Shown here in pieces: positions 9,438-64,000 of a stretch of 64,000 nucleotides of DNA. A program made the position numbers and the translations under genes. Below the pieces are notes generated by a model. That model saw only the letters and a list, made by a program, of their open reading frames with translations, made no database searches and was not told the DNA's origin. Source of the stretch: Ostreococcus lucimarinus (Eukaryota); NCBI GenBank assembly GCA_000092065.1, contig CP000587.1. One strand, 5' to 3'. How positions within the stretch are numbered: position 1 is the first letter of the stretch; each line of letters starts with the position of its first letter.

Positions 9438-11849
9438 ATGGACCGGCGAGATGAGGCTGGTGCGGTCGCGTCCTCGTCTGCACCCGCGACGCGCGCTCGA
9501 GCGTTGTTCGCGCGCAGGAAGCCGGCGTTTTCAGCCTCGTTCGCGCGATCACGATCGAACGCGGGAGAGGTGGAAGCCGCGCTTCGCGCCGTCGAGAGCA
9601 AGCTCGCGGAGGAAAAGGGAAAACTCGACGACAGCCAAAGAGCGCACCCACTCGCGGGGAAGGCGCGAGTTGAATTGAACGACGGTGATGTCTATCGCGG
9701 GCCGTGGAACGATCACTCGCCGGTGGGATACGGACGATATTCGTGGGCGAACGGGAACGAATACGTGGGCGAATTCCACGACGGCAAGCCGAGCGGGCGA
9801 GGAACGTACGAGTGGGCGCACGGCGGGGTGTACAAGGGCAATTTCGAACACGGTTTGATGCACGGGGAAGGGACGTATACGGCGTCGGACGGTGCGAAGT
9901 ACCACGGGTCTTGGAGACGGGGGAAAAAGCATGGTTTAGGCATACAGCATTTTACCAACGGCGACTGCTACGAGGGACTGTGGAACGATGGGGTCGGCCA
10001 CGGACCGGGAACGTACAGATGGAAGGCGCTCGAAGGCGAAGAAGGACACGACGAGTTCGATGGTGAGTGGCTTAATGGGAAAATGCACGGATGGGGCACC
10101 TTGCGGTGGGGATCGGGCGATCGATACGATGGTAACTGGTCCGTGGGACAAATTTCCGGCAGCGGTGTCATGACTTGGTGCGACGGGTCATCTTTTAGTG
10201 GGCGATGGAAATGCGGTAAGAAGGACGGGTCGGGTGCGTTCATGTTGTCTGGGGGTGAAAGTTCTAGTGTTACTCGAAACAATATCAAACTCAGCGTGCA
10301 AATCAACCGATCAGCGAGGCCCAAGACAAGTTTTGATGACAGCGAAGGCGAGGAAATTATCGCCGCAGATCTAGGCAACACATACTTGTTGCTCTGCGAG
10401 TGCTCTGAGGATCAAATCTTGAAGAAAGAAGTCGTCGAGACCGATGGTGTGGCCCACAAACATTCGTTGTGGACGAGTCCGATGGCGAGTAGATCACGAA
10501 AGGTCCGTAAAGTCCGGCATGGAGAAACTATTTACAAAGGTCACGGGAGTTACGACTTGATGCTACAACTGCGCGTTGGCATTCGTTGGAGTGTGAGCAG
10601 CATGCAAGAGTTCTCGGACGTCGCTTTGCAAACTTGTAGCTTTGACGTAAGCCTCAAGCAACAGTTTCCTCGCGGTGGCTCTGCGAAAACGCCGCCGCAC
10701 TTCGCTCGAACGTTCAAGTGGAAAGAATATAGACCAGAAGTTTTTCGACATTTACGTGCGCGTTGGCGAGTAGATCCCGCACAGTTTATGCTGTCGCTGT
10801 GTGGTGATCAAGCGCTGAGAGAGCTGTCTTCGCCTGGTAAGTCCGGGAGTGTGTTTTACATATCTCACGACGATCAATTCATCATCAAAACGATGCGAAA
10901 GTCGGAAATGGTGCGACTCAAGTCTTGGTTGCATGTGTATTACCAACACGTTCACGATTACCCCGAGACGTTATTGCCAAAGTTTTACGGCTTGTATAGC
11001 ATCAAAGCGGCTGGCACTGCGAGGAAGGTACGGGTGGTTGTCATGTCGAATCTCTTCTCCGCCAAGCACCCGATACACAAGACTTTTGATCTCAAAGGCT
11101 CGACACACGGACGTTTCACGAAGCTGGAAAACGCGACGCCACACACCGTGTTGAAAGACTTGGATATTTCTAGAAAATTCCGCGTTGAAGAAGGGAAACG
11201 AGATAAACTCATCGAGCAATTGAACAAAGATTGTATATTTCTGCAGAAATTACGTGTCATGGATTACAGTCTCCTCGTTGGAGTACACGTCCTGCCTCCA
11301 GCGTTGGGGCGCGGACGACTCGCTTCCCCACGTTACAGCGAAGTCGGCGCCACCTCGCCAGTACAAGAAGAATCTGGTTCGCCTTGGGGCGGGGCGGAAT
11401 GGCGAGATCACGTCATGCAATCGGTTCGTCGAAATATGAAAGCACTCGACTTGTACAACGACCGAAAACAGTTTGGCTTCGCGCACGGGATGGAGGAAGT
11501 CTCGCCGAGCGAGCAAGCCTCGCTGCGACCGCCACCGGGAACAGACGACCTCATCGCGCACTCTACTGGAGCAGCAAAGTCCAAGTTGGGCGTCGCTATG
11601 GCCGCAGTCTCCGTGCACGGGCGTATTTTGACGAAGCAACCTCCAGTTGAGTCCCCTATCGAAGAGCACACGGAGCCTCAAGACGTCATTCTATACCTCG
11701 GCATCATTGATATCTTGCAGGAATACACGACGTCGAAAAATTTAGAGACCAAGATGATGGGTGTGATGGGTAAAAAGTCTTTCTCCTCCATCGATCCGAC
11801 GAATTACGCGAAACGGTTCCTGAACTTCATGTCTAATTTGTTTGAATAG
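9438..11849 (+). CDS. PIP5K: Phosphatidylinositol-4-phosphate 5-kinase with N-terminal MORN repeats (plant-type PIP5K)
   Basis: Repeated YxGxWxxGxxHGxGxxxxxxG MORN units, e.g. YRGPWNDHSPVGYGRYSWANGNEYVGEF. The PIPK catalytic domain follows: ..MLSLCGDQALRELSSPGKSGSVFYISHDDQFIIKTMRKSE...YSLLVGVH...LGIIDILQEYTTSKNLE. The ATG at 9438 was checked. Confidence 0.9.
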   Translation: MDRRDEAGAVASSSAPATRARALFARRKPAFSASFARSRSNAGEVEAALRAVESKLAEEKGKLDDSQRAHPLAGKARVELNDGDVYRGPWNDHSPVGYGRYSWANGNEYVGEFHDGKPSGRGTYEWAHGGVYKGNFEHGLMHGEGTYTASDGAKYHGSWRRGKKHGLGIQHFTNGDCYEGLWNDGVGHGPGTYRWKALEGEEGHDEFDGEWLNGKMHGWGTLRWGSGDRYDGNWSVGQISGSGVMTWCDGSSFSGRWKCGKKDGSGAFMLSGGESSSVTRNNIKLSVQINRSARPKTSFDDSEGEEIIAADLGNTYLLLCECSEDQILKKEVVETDGVAHKHSLWTSPMASRSRKVRKVRHGETIYKGHGSYDLMLQLRVGIRWSVSSMQEFSDVALQTCSFDVSLKQQFPRGGSAKTPPHFARTFKWKEYRPEVFRHLRARWRVDPAQFMLSLCGDQALRELSSPGKSGSVFYISHDDQFIIKTMRKSEMVRLKSWLHVYYQHVHDYPETLLPKFYGLYSIKAAGTARKVRVVVMSNLFSAKHPIHKTFDLKGSTHGRFTKLENATPHTVLKDLDISRKFRVEEGKRDKLIEQLNKDCIFLQKLRVMDYSLLVGVHVLPPALGRGRLASPRYSEVGATSPVQEESGSPWGGAEWRDHVMQSVRRNMKALDLYNDRKQFGFAHGMEEVSPSEQASLRPPPGTDDLIAHSTGAAKSKLGVAMAAVSVHGRILTKQPPVESPIEEHTEPQDVILYLGIIDILQEYTTSKNLETKMMGVMGKKSFSSIDPTNYAKRFLNFMSNLFE

Positions 11850-59710: not shown

Positions 59711-59888
59711 CGCGTCGGCAACCGCCGCGACAGAGCGACGCGGAGTGACGACGCGCGACGGCGCGACGGCGCGCGCGTTCGGGCGCGGGCGCGAAGAAAA
59801 AATCGACTCGCTCGACGGCGCGGTCGACGGGACGAGGCGCGACGGCGGCGAGCGACGGCGCGACGAAGACGCGAAGACGGACGACGAA

Positions 59889-61664
59889 ATGACGGCGGGC
59901 GCGCGGACGACGACGACGCTGGAGCGGTACACGCCGCGGGACGCGGACCCGGACGAGGTGTTCGAGGAGATGATTTTGGATTGGCGCGCGAATCCGCGGG
60001 TGAAGCTGCGGCGAAGGCGCGAGTGGGGGTGGGACGCGAGGGACGCGGCGACGACGGCGGCGCTGAGCGCGGCGTGGACGCTGGGACCGGCGACGCTGGC
60101 GTGGACGGCGGCGAAGGCGTACGTGAATCGGGGAAGCGCGATGGAGCGAAGGAAGAAAAAGTGGGGGGTCGTGATGGCGCTCGCGGCGAGCGAATTGGGG
60201 TGGTACGCGCACAGGCGAGGGGTCGGGAAGCGATTCGACGACGACGAAAATATGAAGGCGACGCCGACGCGACGGGATTTCGATCGGTTCTTGCAGCTTC
60301 GCTACGACGGAGTGTTGGATTTTAACGCGTACATCAGGGGATGGATGAAGACGTGGAAGAGTTTCGCGTTCGGTGAACGCGAGAATCCGTTTCGGGCGAC
60401 GCCGTCGAGCCCGCCCTTGTCCAGGGCGTCGACGCCCGGGATCGATCGCGCCGAGTCGCCGGCGTTTCACCGAGAGACGGCGCTGGATTTTTTACGTTTC
60501 GGCTTTCACGACGCGCTGAGCGCGGAAGAGATCGGCGAGCGCAAAGAGCGGGAGCTGAGGACATTCATGGAGGAAATTGAGGCGCACTGGAACTTGAAAT
60601 TCGACGACAACGCGGCGAGGGAATCGTTCGAGTTTATGTTTCACACAAAGGAAAAGCTCGGGGCGTTGCATCAACCGCTGTTGTTCACCGCGTGGGTGAA
60701 CGGTGTGGCGGGCGTGACCGGGCTGGCGTTACACGCGTTGGGATTTAAATTGTATCACGGCGCCAACGGGTGTTCGTACTGGGCGAACTGCGAAATCGTC
60801 GAGAATAATTGGAAGCGACGACGCGCGAGGACGGCGACGCGAGAGACGAGGCACGGCCGAGGCGTCGAGACGAGACCGGTGTTGTGCGGAGACGCGGGCG
60901 ACGCGAGCGACGGCGATACGAAGCCAATCATTTTCGTCCACGGCCTGGGCGTCGGACTCGCGCCGTATGTTCCGCACATCGCGCAACTCTTGCGCAGCAG
61001 ACCGAATCGCAAAATCGCCATGCTGACGCTTCCTCACATTAGCATGCGAGCGGTGCCGAAGGTGCCTGAACTCGACGACATGGTGGACACGGTGGTGGAA
61101 ATCACGAAGAAGCACGCATTTCGCGCGCCAGCGCTGTACGGACACAGTTTCGGCACCTTTGTCGTGGCGAGGACGTGTCAAAGGTTTTGCGTGAGTTCAA
61201 TCGTGCTCCTCGATCCGGTTTGCGTGTGCTTGTGCTTACCGCAAACTGTAGGTATTTTATACCAGCTCAATAAGAGCTGGGTCGACTTCAGGAATAGACT
61301 CATGGAAGGTCCGCGAACGCTCGCGACCGCGTCGTTTTGGCGCGATGGAAATGCATTGTTGTACTTTTTGTTGCGCGACTACTTTCTTCTTCGAGAAATC
61401 GGCGTCATGACGGCGCTTCGAAGAAAGTTTTGGTGGGCTCGTTATAACTTGTGGGCGGACGATTTGCCGGTGGACTCACTCATCGTGCTCGAATCGAATG
61501 ATCTATTGCTCGACACGGACGCCATCTGCAGGCACGTGTTGAGGCAATCAAAGGCGCGAATTATTTGGCAAGAGAAATTCGCGCACGGCGAATTTTGCAT
61601 GCCGTGGGGATACGGCTTGCGAAGCGACGTTGTCGACTTCTTAGACGCGTTAAAGAACGCGTAA
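59889..61664 (+). CDS. Alpha/beta-hydrolase fold protein (lipase/esterase-like, GHSFG nucleophile elbow)
   Basis: ..PIIFVHGLGVGLAPYVPHIAQLL...ALYGHSFGTFVVARTC... The start is uncertain, with ATG candidates at ~59889 and ~59970. It is divergent from the YeiH-like gene. Confidence 0.55.
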   Translation: MTAGARTTTTLERYTPRDADPDEVFEEMILDWRANPRVKLRRRREWGWDARDAATTAALSAAWTLGPATLAWTAAKAYVNRGSAMERRKKKWGVVMALAASELGWYAHRRGVGKRFDDDENMKATPTRRDFDRFLQLRYDGVLDFNAYIRGWMKTWKSFAFGERENPFRATPSSPPLSRASTPGIDRAESPAFHRETALDFLRFGFHDALSAEEIGERKERELRTFMEEIEAHWNLKFDDNAARESFEFMFHTKEKLGALHQPLLFTAWVNGVAGVTGLALHALGFKLYHGANGCSYWANCEIVENNWKRRRARTATRETRHGRGVETRPVLCGDAGDASDGDTKPIIFVHGLGVGLAPYVPHIAQLLRSRPNRKIAMLTLPHISMRAVPKVPELDDMVDTVVEITKKHAFRAPALYGHSFGTFVVARTCQRFCVSSIVLLDPVCVCLCLPQTVGILYQLNKSWVDFRNRLMEGPRTLATASFWRDGNALLYFLLRDYFLLREIGVMTALRRKFWWARYNLWADDLPVDSLIVLESNDLLLDTDAICRHVLRQSKARIIWQEKFAHGEFCMPWGYGLRSDVVDFLDALKNA

Positions 61665-61766: not shown

Positions 61767-64000
61767 CTAGCGCCACTCGACGAAGTGTTGGCGCAGTTGC
61801 TTTGGTCGACAAGAGCGACCTTCTTCGAGGTTGAACTTGTAGCAAACTCCTTGACGCAGTTCCATCGGGAACAAATCCGGATGGAGAATTCGAGCTAAAG
61901 TCTCCACACCATCAACGAGTTGTGGACCGGCTTGACAAATCATTTCGTGGGAGAGAACGAAGACGCGGCGATCGCGCACGGCAGGAATCACCCACCAACC
62001 CGGCTGACTCGCCAAATGTTCTAGCTGTTCGAGCGTCCTCTCCATGGTTTCTTCGGATGATTTACCTATGTAGCAAGGCACGAGAAGTAACACATCTGGG
62101 CCGTACGACAGCACTTGCTCCCATCGCATGCGCTCAGCTGAAACGCCCGGTTCGTGAAGTTCGTCGATACCGCCGGCGATTGATTTCATCTCGGGCAGCC
62201 AGTGTCCGCCGGCGACGAGAGGTTTGATGCCTTCCAAAGACATGACCTTCGGCCTTTCGTCAGCCGTGGCGACGACACGAGCGATAGTACGCAAACGTGA
62301 TCGAAGCTGCGTCAGCAAAGTCACCGCCTTTTCCTTTACACCGCACAAAATCCCGATTTGAAGAATCACGTCCAAGACGTCGCTCAGCGTCTTTGGAGCG
62401 ACGGGGAAGATTGACGGCCGCGACGCGTCGACTTCCAAGGAATCTTCGTCCGAATCAAACTCTGCGTTCGTCAAGAAAACTTCGGCTTCGTGTAGAAACT
62501 TGGCGGTGCCAAAACGCACATCGGTGCACTGTGAGCACACGTCTGGGGTGAAGATGAGTCGAGCCTCTGCGTGGCGCACAAAGTTGACGTCGAAGAAACA
62601 CCATTTGTCGAGCGCGCTCACGTGCGACGACGAGCTATGCCTGGCCTCCAAACGAGTCAGCGAGTTGTAGCTCGACCCGTGATGAGTTCCACCAAAAAAT
62701 TCGAAATCGCCATTCAAAGAGTTCGAAGACTTCTTTCGATTGTCAGCGAGACCAGCGCTCGATTGCGGCAAAGCGAGAGAGTGCAAGTGTCTGGCGACGA
62801 TTTTTGGGTAATCCGTGATGTCCTCTGGAAGCACGCACGCCTCCGTGATGCCGACGATTCGATCGCCGACGCCAAGTGCATAGAGGATAGATGTCGCAGT
62901 CGTGGAAAGGGAAATTATCGACCCCACCGATTGCGGCAACGGAAGCTGCAGCTGCGAAGGCGCGTGGAGATGATCCGCCATGACTTGCGGCGCGGCGCCA
63001 AAGTATAAGTGCAGAGCCACATCGAGCTCGGGTTGCGTCGTTGACTTACGAGGCATTCCCGAGAGTTTCGATATTTGCGCACCCAGTGACTGCATCGACG
63101 CCGATGAGCGCGAGCGGAACATTCCTAATCCCTCCGCCGAGTCCAAGTCAACCGAGTACTCGCGGAAGTCGCGAGACATCGCACGAGCGCGCCGCGGCGG
63201 CAAAACCTGTTTGACTTTTTCTGGTGAATCCGACTGCGCTGACCGCGCGAGCATCTCTTCCTCGCTCATACTCCTGCTTCGTTCGAGAGCCTTGTCGAAC
63301 TTTCTCGAACTGATTGGCGTCAGAGGTCCGAAGCTCTTGCTCATCGTCCTTCGTGAAACCATCGCCGCGCGCGCCGCGGCTTCCGCCGCGCCCGGCGGCA
63401 CGCTTCTGCACGACTCAACGAACGAGGAAGCCAAAGATGGATTAGCGCCAAAGTGAAGGTGTAACTGCGATACCAGCACATTGTTCCACGCGAAACCGTC
63501 GAGATTGATCGAGTTTTTGCCCTTGCCGAATTTTCGTTCCTGCTTCACCTCGTACGTCGCGCCCCAGCCGATGGCGACTTTATCCTCCGTCACGCGCATC
63601 TTGCTCGGTCTATCGCCGTGTATTTCGCTGTATCGAAACGTCTGACCTCGAACGACTTCACCCTCGTTGAACAAAGGATTTCCGGGCGCAATAGTGATCT
63701 CGGCGTATCCCGTCTTCACCGAACTCGTGAGTCGCGTCGCGAAGGGCGCGACGCCGCACATGGATCGAGGCGAGCTCCCATCCGGCGCTGAGAGCGACTG
63801 CGAAAGGAACATCAATCCACCGCATTCGGCGTACACCACGCCTCCTGCTGTGGCAAACGCCGTCACCGCCGATCGTAAAGGCCGATTCTTGAACAAGGCC
63901 TGCGCGTGAAACTCGGGATAACCTCCGCCAAAGATGACGCCTTGGACGTCGCTCGGCAATCCTTCGCCGGCTATCGGACTAAAGTAGACTAATTCCGCCC
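61767..64000 (-). CDS. CobB/CbiA-type cobyrinate a,c-diamide synthase (glutamine-amidotransferase half visible) fused to a C-terminal BtuF-like periplasmic-binding-protein (class III PBP, cobalamin/siderophore type) domain. The gene is 5'-partial and continues beyond the window end
   Basis: The frame is open to position 64000. The translation upstream of the track ORF, ..AELVYFSPIAGEGLPSDVQGVIFGGGYPEFHAQALFKNRPLRSAVTAFATAGGVVYAECGGLMFL.., is the CobB GATase-3 domain with its catalytic Cys. ..GQTFRYSEI.. and ..VSQLHLHFGANPSLASSFVE are CobB C-terminal blocks. About 500 further residues follow. These include ..IISLSTTATSILYALGVGDRIVGITE.. and a C-terminal ..GKSSEETMERTLEQLEHLASQPGWWVIPAVRDRRVFVLSHEMICQAGPQLVDGVETLARILHPDLF, which is typical of BtuF/FhuD-type binding proteins. 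Confidence 0.6.
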   Translation of the reverse strand, partial: AELVYFSPIAGEGLPSDVQGVIFGGGYPEFHAQALFKNRPLRSAVTAFATAGGVVYAECGGLMFLSQSLSAPDGSSPRSMCGVAPFATRLTSSVKTGYAEITIAPGNPLFNEGEVVRGQTFRYSEIHGDRPSKMRVTEDKVAIGWGATYEVKQERKFGKGKNSINLDGFAWNNVLVSQLHLHFGANPSLASSFVESCRSVPPGAAEAAARAAMVSRRTMSKSFGPLTPISSRKFDKALERSRSMSEEEMLARSAQSDSPEKVKQVLPPRRARAMSRDFREYSVDLDSAEGLGMFRSRSSASMQSLGAQISKLSGMPRKSTTQPELDVALHLYFGAAPQVMADHLHAPSQLQLPLPQSVGSIISLSTTATSILYALGVGDRIVGITEACVLPEDITDYPKIVARHLHSLALPQSSAGLADNRKKSSNSLNGDFEFFGGTHHGSSYNSLTRLEARHSSSSHVSALDKWCFFDVNFVRHAEARLIFTPDVCSQCTDVRFGTAKFLHEAEVFLTNAEFDSDEDSLEVDASRPSIFPVAPKTLSDVLDVILQIGILCGVKEKAVTLLTQLRSRLRTIARVVATADERPKVMSLEGIKPLVAGGHWLPEMKSIAGGIDELHEPGVSAERMRWEQVLSYGPDVLLLVPCYIGKSSEETMERTLEQLEHLASQPGWWVIPAVRDRRVFVLSHEMICQAGPQLVDGVETLARILHPDLFPMELRQGVCYKFNLEEGRSCRPKQLRQHFVEWR

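Follow-up and report, generated by a model that had tools for sequence, protein, structure and literature searches.

Why would a green alga carry, in one protein, a module for amidating corrin rings and a domain of the kind that binds cobalamin (vitamin B12)? The question is raised by positions 61767-64000 of a 64,000-nucleotide stretch of Ostreococcus lucimarinus DNA (contig CP000587.1), the whole of which is termed the window here. The minus strand of this region encodes a CobB-type glutamine amidotransferase that runs on, in the same frame, into a domain resembling the cobalamin-binding protein BtuF. We know of no corrinoid synthesis in eukaryotes. A first-pass annotation made from the DNA letters had proposed an undescribed cobalamin salvage or remodelling protein, with a bacterial module repurposed in an organelle as the alternative. 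The best reading of the evidence presented below, held with moderate confidence, is an old eukaryotic protein by which, we infer, corrinoids are handled in the cytosol.

A single nuclear gene encodes the fusion

Translation of the minus strand at 61767-63998 gave 743 codons without a stop, closing with ...HFVEWR*, and the open frame continues past the window edge at 64000. For the local base composition, a random run of 743 stop-free codons has a probability of approximately 1.6e-11, and the ~158-codon stretch separating the two conserved domains would be free of stops by chance with a probability of approximately 0.005. Both a GATase_3 and a Peripla_BP_2 domain were located by Pfam in this single open reading frame (ORF), as the first-pass annotation had anticipated, and the motifs it quoted (GGGYPE, AECGGLMFL, HLHFGANP, SIISLSTTATSILYALGVGDRIVGI.. 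and GPQLVDGVETLARILHPDLF) are all present in frame. A search of approximately 5.8 billion proteins returned two full-length proteins, P0001 and P0002, which are 98-100% identical to the window's translation across all 743 residues and contain PF01656 (CbiA), PF07685 and PF01497 (Pfam); the CbiA half had been expected beyond 64000. As P0002 has 1031 residues, 288 N-terminal residues are absent from the window, and the 5' ~864 nucleotides of the gene, which encode the P-loop CbiA synthetase half of a full protein of ~1031 residues, lie beyond 64000. Positions 61767-64000 are the 3' two-thirds of a single O. lucimarinus nuclear gene.

The GenBank entry ABO97319.1 from O. lucimarinus CCE9901 (207 residues, labelled 'ABC (binding protein) family transporter: iron compound, partial') is identical to residues 537-743 of the window ORF, and ABO97320.1 (468 residues, 'predicted protein, partial') is the CobB half of the fusion gene. 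Since the two entries cover one frame, the GenBank annotation divides one gene into two partial models and leaves ~340 codons between them without annotation, among them those for the N-lobe of the binding domain. The O. tauri orthologue, XP_003080537.1, is a single model of 1022 residues named 'CobB/CobQ glutamine amidotransferase'. Complete single transcripts of the O. mediterraneus and Bathycoccus orthologues were found in MMETSP, and further single transcripts in Tara data. The O. tauri and Bathycoccus orthologues lie on contigs of ~0.77-0.94 Mb. The guanine-plus-cytosine content of 62001-64000 is 0.567, within the window range of 0.51-0.68, in agreement with the first-pass annotation.

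The two partial GenBank models and the prokaryotic type of both domains are the points in favour of an artefact, in the form of a chance read-through of two genes, a bacterial contaminant or a recent organelle-targeted transfer confined to Ostreococcus. Such an artefact is extremely improbable given the stop-free probabilities above, the continuous frame and conserved linker, the complete single transcripts, the annotation of the O. tauri gene as one protein, the same fusion in dozens of eukaryotic lineages and on chromosome-scale contigs, and the clustering of eukaryotic CobB domains away from bacterial ones. The contaminant, two-gene and organelle-targeted readings were ruled out on the frame, the transcripts, the eukaryotic spread and the missing presequence. 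The earlier view of one nuclear eukaryotic gene was thereby borne out.

The N-terminus was examined in a homologous locus with 97% DNA identity (L001), in which an in-frame stop lies 9 codons 5' of MKVLVVAGTHSGVGKTT. The start position is the same in O. tauri and other orthologues, and the P-loop starts at approximately residue 7 of the full protein. Because of the upstream in-frame stop the fusion has no N-terminal presequence and is probably cytosolic, and the organelle alternative was abandoned.

The CobB module

The best NCBIfam match of the window fragment was CobB PRK01077 (115.8 bits), confined to positions 261-420 of the model, as expected of a protein of which half lies beyond the window. 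Full-length P0002, which is 98% identical to the window ORF, gave 393.2 bits against a cut-off of 254 and covered positions 1-420 of 420; it also passed the cut-off of TIGR00379 (347.3 bits, cut-off 261.4). The score on CfbB, the Ni-sirohydrochlorin a,c-diamide synthase model NF033195, was 336.1 bits, below the cut-off of 560. The N-terminal synthetase motifs GTHSGVGKTT, KVGCDFVDP, DGVMGLYDG and GSTAQ were identified in P0001 and P0002, all of them beyond 64000. Alignment with hmmalign revealed that the P-loop, KVGxDFxDP, DGxxGLYDG, GSTA, AECGG and HLHFG of the O. lucimarinus protein all agree with bacterial CobB, and HLHFG is identical in nine of nine fusions (alignment A1). The algal domain is 34-44% identical to the bacterial CobBs compared. 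A search of solved structures by sequence returned no CbiA/CobB relative. The O. lucimarinus fusion is predicted from these comparisons to hold a complete CobB/CbiA-type ATP-dependent a,c-diamide synthetase module with its cysteine and histidine intact.

The C-terminal BtuF-like domain

The extension past the amidotransferase domain had been put at ~500 residues; it is real but longer, ~556 residues, comprising a linker of ~165 residues and a binding-protein domain of ~389. No domain was detected by Pfam in the linker, which contains two short motifs conserved among Ostreococcus relatives (PPRRxRAxSRDFRE and DLDSAEGxGMFRSRSSASM). The strongest stretch of the Peripla_BP_2 match (PF01497) spans residues 537-682 of the same ORF with an E-value of 3e-15.

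An AlphaFold model of the C-terminal domain was built from a 60-sequence alignment, giving a mean predicted local distance difference test (pLDDT) of 83.3 and a predicted template modelling score (pTM) of 0.82. The model contains two alpha/beta lobes joined by a long helix. When it was compared with the PDB using Foldseek, the top fold matches were the heme-binding periplasmic binding proteins (PBPs) RhuT, ShuT, BhuT and IsdE together with Vibrio BtuF (E-values 7e-14 to 5e-12), the Vibrio BtuF structure 5ysc giving an E-value of 4.9e-12 and a TMt of 0.73. Weak matches to 5ysc were also obtained in the sequence search of solved structures. These matches settle the fold and suggest that the ligand is a tetrapyrrole, without fixing which one. 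The NCBIfam BtuF model PRK03379 (cut-off 234) gave no match to the window fragment (E <= 1) or to the full-length protein (E <= 0.001).

Several conserved features distinguish the domain. Cys388, close to the N-lobe signature, is invariant across alignment A3, and the disordered N-lobe insert is missing from the prokaryotic homologues in the same alignment. The CxxC motif lies in the model between the strand 125-131 and the N-terminus of the helix 138-150; judged from an alignment with BtuF, it would be turned towards the ligand cleft. The motif is lost in some green-lineage fusions. The C-terminal tail is common to the eukaryotic fusions and a subset of prokaryotic homologues. Across eukaryotes the most conserved parts of the fusion are the PBP domain and this tail.

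A prokaryotic family without signal peptides

Profile searches identified stand-alone prokaryotic homologues of ~300-324 residues that align end to end with the algal domain, among them P0228 (E-value 4.2e-81, 97% coverage) and P0229 (E-value 1.5e-75, 98% coverage). Their N-terminal sequence is M-(K/R)-I-(C/V)-S-L-L-P-S-x-T-E, with the start only 4-8 residues before the first strand, and with an upstream frame of 4-8 codons in many genomes a signal peptide is impossible. The family is presumably cytoplasmic. Its motifs are S-L-x-P-S-x-T-E, an invariant cysteine before D/x-x-P, (T/S)Q-x-x-C-x-x-C/U and GGHW(L/V)PE, to which SLSTTATS, TEACVLP, TPDVCSQC and GGHWLPE correspond in the window. CxxC or CxxU was present in 81 of the 82 prokaryotic members. 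On the BtuF model PRK03379 the stand-alone relatives scored 29-53 bits against the cut-off of 234. By motif and alignment the algal C-terminal domain is assigned to this signal-less BtuF-like family, distinct from the BtuF of the transporter. Of the earlier description as a BtuF-like binding domain, the class III fold stands, and the periplasmic BtuF identity gives way to a signal-less CxxC/CxxU subfamily.

In five Dehalococcoidia homologues (L029, L034, L046, L059 and L075) the second cysteine of the CxxC is replaced by an in-frame TGA (..ICEV*A..) at ~10280-10285, after which the frame runs for ~215 more codons to a normal C-terminus. A conserved hairpin, CUCGGCA-GGU-UGCCGAG, begins 13-14 nucleotides 3' of the UGA. 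Whole-segment folding z-scores for a selenocysteine insertion sequence were not significant, so that recoding is supported solely by the conserved local hairpin. Two CDD-based selenoprotein reviews list a 'cobalamin-binding protein BtuF, CxxU' family, with which the TGA forms agree. The TGA-bearing homologues are probable selenoproteins, and the exchange of cysteine and selenocysteine at the second CxxC position points to a chemically active thiol.

Cobalamin loci of the prokaryotic relatives

The neighbours within 6 kb were surveyed at 84 prokaryotic loci, 80 of which were obtained by scanning a single genome for each species. An ABC ATPase was found at 13 loci, a FecCD permease at eight and a TonB-dependent receptor at eight. 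A PduO-type adenosyltransferase was present at six (adjacent or overlapping in five, at 2.6 kb in the other), a flavin reductase at six (adjacent and on the same strand, five directly downstream), and CobB at five, of which four are distinct. CobB was rejected as a general neighbour of the PBP family on the basis of these four distinct loci of 84, the neighbours being varied. Rfam detected the cobalamin riboswitch RF00174 in 10 of the 26 loci scanned, the first two scans having been made on loci picked for their neighbours; in an unselected set it was found in two of seven.

The order riboswitch, TonB receptor, signal-less CxxC PBP, all on the same strand, was observed at four loci (L072, L032, L012 and L020), where a further canonical PBP, with a low score, adjoins the FecCD and ABC ATPase genes. 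Since a separate canonical PBP accompanies the permease and ATPase, the CxxC protein is an extra component of the B12 loci and not the BtuF of the transporter. The arrangement suggests that the signal-less PBP takes part in bacterial corrinoid uptake or salvage as a cytoplasmic component not yet characterised. Paired canonical and signal-less CxxC PBP genes in B12-riboswitch loci were also noted at L004, L016 and L070.

The homologues closest to the algal domain occur in two gene strings. One, at L005, is PBP, PBP, CobA/BtuR, CobB, CobQ. The other is a compact string at L002 (4522-8975), repeated in L003, which joins an Asn-synthase-like amidotransferase and CobB to a tandem pair of signal-less PBP paralogues; genes for ferrochelatase and Aminotran_3 lie close by, and the contig carries archaeal-type genes (CggR_N, DUF4443). 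The six loci with a flavin-reductase-domain gene adjoining the PBP on the same strand (L007, L011, L014, L017, L023 and L024) are of Dehalococcoidia/Chloroflexota type, L024 being labelled just 'uncultured bacterium'. In five of them it lies 4-174 nucleotides downstream of the PBP gene, and in L023 it overlaps the end of that gene. CobR, a known cob(II)yrinic acid a,c-diamide reductase, is a member of this flavin-reductase family. The prokaryotic family is linked to corrinoid uptake and late-pathway loci under cobalamin riboswitches, and the cobalamin connection suggested for the algal protein gains its support from these riboswitches and gene neighbours of its C-terminal domain's relatives.

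Distribution and origin of the fusion

When 1.84 billion cluster representatives were searched with a profile, ~35 clusters (50% identity) of long proteins matched both modules. Besides O. tauri, O. mediterraneus and Bathycoccus the fusion was found in the green algae Chloropicon roscoffensis, Tetraselmis sp., Caulerpa lentillifera and a pedinophyte, among others. It is also present in the liverwort Riccia sorocarpa (P0317), the lycophyte Selaginella moellendorffii (P0321, two loci), the haptophyte Diacronema (Pavlova) lutheri, the oomycete Aphanomyces astaci (P0331) and the chromerid Chromera velia (P0340). Some of these fusions lie on chromosome-scale contigs. The set CbiA, GATase_3 and Peripla_BP_2 was confirmed by Pfam in Aphanomyces, P0333, Chromera, Diacronema, Selaginella and Riccia; the Chlamydomonas-like P0382 gave no CbiA match in Pfam.

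The architecture varies outside the green lineage. The Aphanomyces protein P0331 and P0332, P0333, P0335, P0337, P0338 and P0446 have almost no linker and continue into Kelch repeats, ending in a Cys-rich DUF5522 domain (..CCGNGCRHCPHGH..), and the Chromera protein has a PH domain in place of Kelch and DUF5522. The extra domains were checked by Pfam for P0331, P0333 and P0340 and assigned by eye in the remaining Kelch-type members.

In a crude neighbour-joining tree without support values the CobB domains of eukaryotes form one group, separate from ~60 bacterial CobBs; inside this group fall three short unnamed sequences, which may be eukaryotic fragments. No donor stands out among the bacterial CobBs compared. 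A common origin of both domains from one prokaryotic cobB-pbp operon was rejected, as the CobBs encoded beside the nearest PBP homologues (L002, L005, L012 and L056) are not the nearest CobBs to the algal domain: they are 34-38% identical to it and rank 76-100 of 111. The profile searches and the tree indicate that the fusion is old and widespread in eukaryotes, and the notion of a green-algal peculiarity or a recent transfer did not survive the finding of the fusion across eukaryotic supergroups and of one eukaryotic CobB clade in the crude tree.

The plant members bear on the nature of the ligand. A published survey found METH in no land plants except hornworts and only CblB and CblJ in liverworts, Selaginella not being discussed (PMC11439496). 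The presence of the fusion in Riccia and Selaginella, plant groups without METH in that survey, agrees with amidation or chaperoning of a non-corrinoid tetrapyrrole (siroheme, sirohydrochlorin or heme-type) unrelated to B12, as do the many heme-binding PBPs among the best fold matches, the CfbB score of 336 bits, near those of the CobB models, and the ferrochelatase and Aminotran_3 genes near one archaeal-type locus. We consider this quite improbable: the CfbB score is far under its cut-off whereas both CobB cut-offs were passed, the PBP relatives are tied to cobalamin riboswitches, adenosyltransferases and CobA/CobB/CobQ rather than to heme or siroheme genes, and the fusion has no plastid transit peptide.

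Proposed role of the fusion protein

The Mamiellophyceae lack METE and are therefore dependent on B12 (PMC11439496). In the proposed mechanism the BtuF-like domain would capture imported corrinoid in the cytosol of an obligate B12 auxotroph, where its thiols may touch the cobalt or its upper ligand. Where its catalytic residues are intact, as in O. lucimarinus, the tethered CobB module would use ATP, together with ammonia from glutamine, to amidate those a/c acetate carboxylates that are free. It would act on corrinoids that are incompletely amidated or have been de-amidated, which would be salvaged or repaired into usable cofactor. We infer amidation-based salvage of this kind by the fusion protein. 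A wider proposal, which we advance tentatively and judge unlikely, is that many eukaryotes keep one corrin step, in which a cytosolic thiol-bearing BtuF-like domain captures imported corrinoids for re-amidation or other processing, and that this step extends from B12-dependent algae, oomycetes and chromerids to liverworts and a lycophyte.

A number of observations weigh against corrinoid handling or against its amidation step. Complete cobalamin has no free a/c carboxylates. The later enzymes needed for using cobyrinic-acid-type precursors are, to our knowledge, not known in Ostreococcus, in which cob/cbi genes were not searched. The C-terminal fold matches heme binders as well as BtuF, at ~15% identity, and most of the prokaryotic loci have no corrinoid gene within 6 kb. 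When the catalytic residues of the fusions were compared using hmmalign, the nucleophile was replaced by glycine in O. mediterraneus, Riccia, Caulerpa, the pedinophyte and others, by serine in Bathycoccus and Tetraselmis, and by alanine in Selaginella and P0087; the P-loop is also missing from a group of Chlamydomonas-like proteins. These losses of nucleophile and P-loop mean that glutamine-dependent amidation cannot be a conserved function of the whole family. Finally, the fusion is present in Riccia and in the vascular plant Selaginella, when METH was not found in liverworts or in any land plants outside the hornworts (PMC11439496).

The same alignment revealed where the module is preserved. 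The nucleophile cysteine is kept in the haptophyte, the oomycete and Chromera, the named non-green members, and in their unnamed Kelch-type relatives. All of the CobB catalytic motifs are present in these three named members and in O. lucimarinus and O. tauri. The Riccia and Selaginella proteins keep the P-loop in addition to having a replaced cysteine. The PBP domain of the linker-less proteins of the stramenopile, alveolate and rhizarian (SAR) type was left unaligned and was judged by eye and by Pfam.

The main rival of amidation salvage is a B12 chaperone or processing protein in which the CxxC BtuF-like domain is the working part and the CobB module is largely non-catalytic, serving just for corrin docking or ATP-gated release. 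This domain would receive imported cobalamin in the cytosol, its thiols would remove or reduce the upper ligand, as in CblC/CblD-like proteins, and the cofactor would be passed to methionine synthase or to adenosyltransferase. Such a role would account for the higher conservation of the PBP domain and tail than of the glutaminase cysteine and, sometimes, the P-loop, which are lost. It fits the PduO-type adenosyltransferase and flavin reductase genes adjoining the prokaryotic homologues, the position of the latter downstream of BtuB-like receptors under B12 riboswitches, the strand-loop-helix geometry of the CxxC/CxxU, which is typical of redox motifs, and the liverworts, which retain the adenosyltransferase CblB and carry the fusion. 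However, all of the CobB catalytic motifs are kept in the five organisms named above, the module exceeds the CobB equivalog cut-off, which is unexpected of a pure scaffold, and the CxxC itself is lost in several green-lineage members. We regard the chaperone role as possible though doubtful.

Novelty and significance

A literature search found no paper noting or studying the fusion of CobB with a BtuF-like domain, and the fusion is absent from published surveys of B12 genes covering plants, algae and fungi. As far as that search reached, the earlier view of an undescribed protein holds for the literature; it is less true of the databases, where XP_003080537.1 already has a name. It is best described as a eukaryotic architecture not previously discussed, built of two modules from known families and present in public proteins under automatic names.

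Ostreococcus and related algae, which are abundant among marine primary producers, depend wholly on B12 from outside. Little is known of the fate of B12 inside algal cells, CBA1 being the main uptake component characterised so far, and the fusion is a tractable candidate for intracellular B12 handling or salvage, its conservation reaching from prasinophytes to oomycetes and chromerids. An orthologue is present in O. tauri, an alga used as a laboratory model. Should the enzyme prove active, the corrinoid forms counted as bioavailable B12 at sea may need revision; if a single corrin step is indeed retained by many eukaryotes, it would constitute a non-animal pathway of B12 trafficking or repair and could widen the corrinoid pool usable by phytoplankton. 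In addition, the signal-less BtuF-like CxxC/CxxU proteins, a large prokaryotic family so far uncharacterised, are assigned a likely corrinoid role. The short list of B12-associated genes of liverworts gains the fusion, which Selaginella carries too.

Features of the locus

The positions of all features are given in Table 1. The convergent neighbouring ORF at 59745-61664 on the plus strand (639 residues) is apparently the alpha/beta-hydrolase gene (PF12697) that adjoins the fusion in L001, and has no evident connection with B12.

Table 1. Features of the fusion gene, in window positions; residues are numbered from the first codon of the window ORF unless stated otherwise.
Feature	Position	Strand	Basis
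3' part of one nuclear gene, 743 codons and stop (61767-61769)	61767..64000	-	frame, full-length relatives
GATase_3, CobB/CobQ-type glutamine amidotransferase, residues 2-186	63441..63995	-	Pfam PF07685, E 9.8e-20
GGGYPE, residues 24-29	63912-63929	-	translation
AECGGLMFL, residues 57-65	63804-63830	-	translation
Cys59 codon (AE-C-GG), predicted glutaminase nucleophile	63822..63824	-	invariant in bacterial CobBs compared
HLHFGANP, residues 180-187, with amidotransferase-site histidine	63438..63461	-	motif comparison
Ser/Arg-rich linker, predicted disordered, residues ~188-354	62937..63437	-	Pfam, alignment
BtuF-like class III binding-protein domain, residues 355-743, internal, without signal peptide	61770..62936	-	Pfam PF01497, AlphaFold, Foldseek
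SIISLSTTATSILYALGVGDRIVGI.., residue 360 onward: N-lobe signature S-L-x-(P/T)-x-x-T and Cys388 (TEA-C-VLP)	62826..62921	-	alignment A3
Low-complexity N-lobe insert, ~50 residues, predicted disordered, domain residues 54-104	62625..62777	-	pLDDT <50
TPDV-C-SQ-C, CxxC motif, Cys488/Cys491	62526..62549	-	alignment, model
GGHWLPE, C-lobe motif, nearly invariant in family	62190..62210	-	alignment
GPQLVDGVETLARILHPDLF, residues 691-710	61869-61928	-	translation
C-terminal tail G-x-x-C-R-P-x-x-L-x-x-x-F	61770..61820	-	alignment; high-confidence in model

Comparison with known systems

When compared with the bacterial enzyme CobB/CbiA, the algal protein has the same layout of CbiA P-loop synthetase and GATase_3, scores above the NCBIfam CobB cut-offs and shares the signature motifs, including the cysteine nucleophile and the histidine of the HxH. 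One difference is that the algal protein is nuclear-encoded in a B12 auxotroph in which the remaining pathway is not known. It also has a C-terminal extension of ~550 residues and 34-44% identity to the bacterial enzymes compared, and its relatives have repeatedly lost the nucleophile; its enzyme role is predicted from the sequence.

The C-terminal domain shares with BtuF the class III two-lobe fold with a long connecting helix and the N-lobe signature S-L-x-P-x-x-T-E, and its stand-alone relatives match the BtuF model weakly. BtuF is the periplasmic component of the BtuCDF importer, whereas the algal domain is internal, without a signal peptide, in a probably cytosolic protein. The algal family also differs in its conserved cysteine, CxxC, GGHW and C-terminal tail, and its prokaryotic relatives coexist with a separate canonical PBP beside the permease and ATPase. 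The closest likeness is to the signal-less CxxU family, with which the domain aligns end to end and has its CxxC at the CxxU position; the algal copy differs in the use of cysteine instead of selenocysteine, in a disordered insert of 50 residues and in the fusion to CobB.

Among eukaryotic proteins, CBA1 (cobalamin acquisition protein 1) of diatoms and Chlamydomonas is also algal, is implicated in B12 handling and has a predicted BtuF-like fold (PMC10828217). It has a signal peptide, is associated with the endoplasmic reticulum and contains no enzyme domain (PMC10828217), whereas the fusion has no presequence and carries a CobB module; the two were set side by side on these properties, and the missing presequence speaks against their being equivalent. 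The fusion has no known relationship in sequence or fold to CblC (MMACHC), the chaperone that processes B12 in the cytosol of animals. The two may nevertheless be analogous in function, both capturing incoming cobalamin in the cytosol and using thiols for chemistry at its upper ligand; the analogy is suggested by the CxxC/CxxU motif and by the genes for adenosyltransferase and flavin reductase near the prokaryotic homologues.

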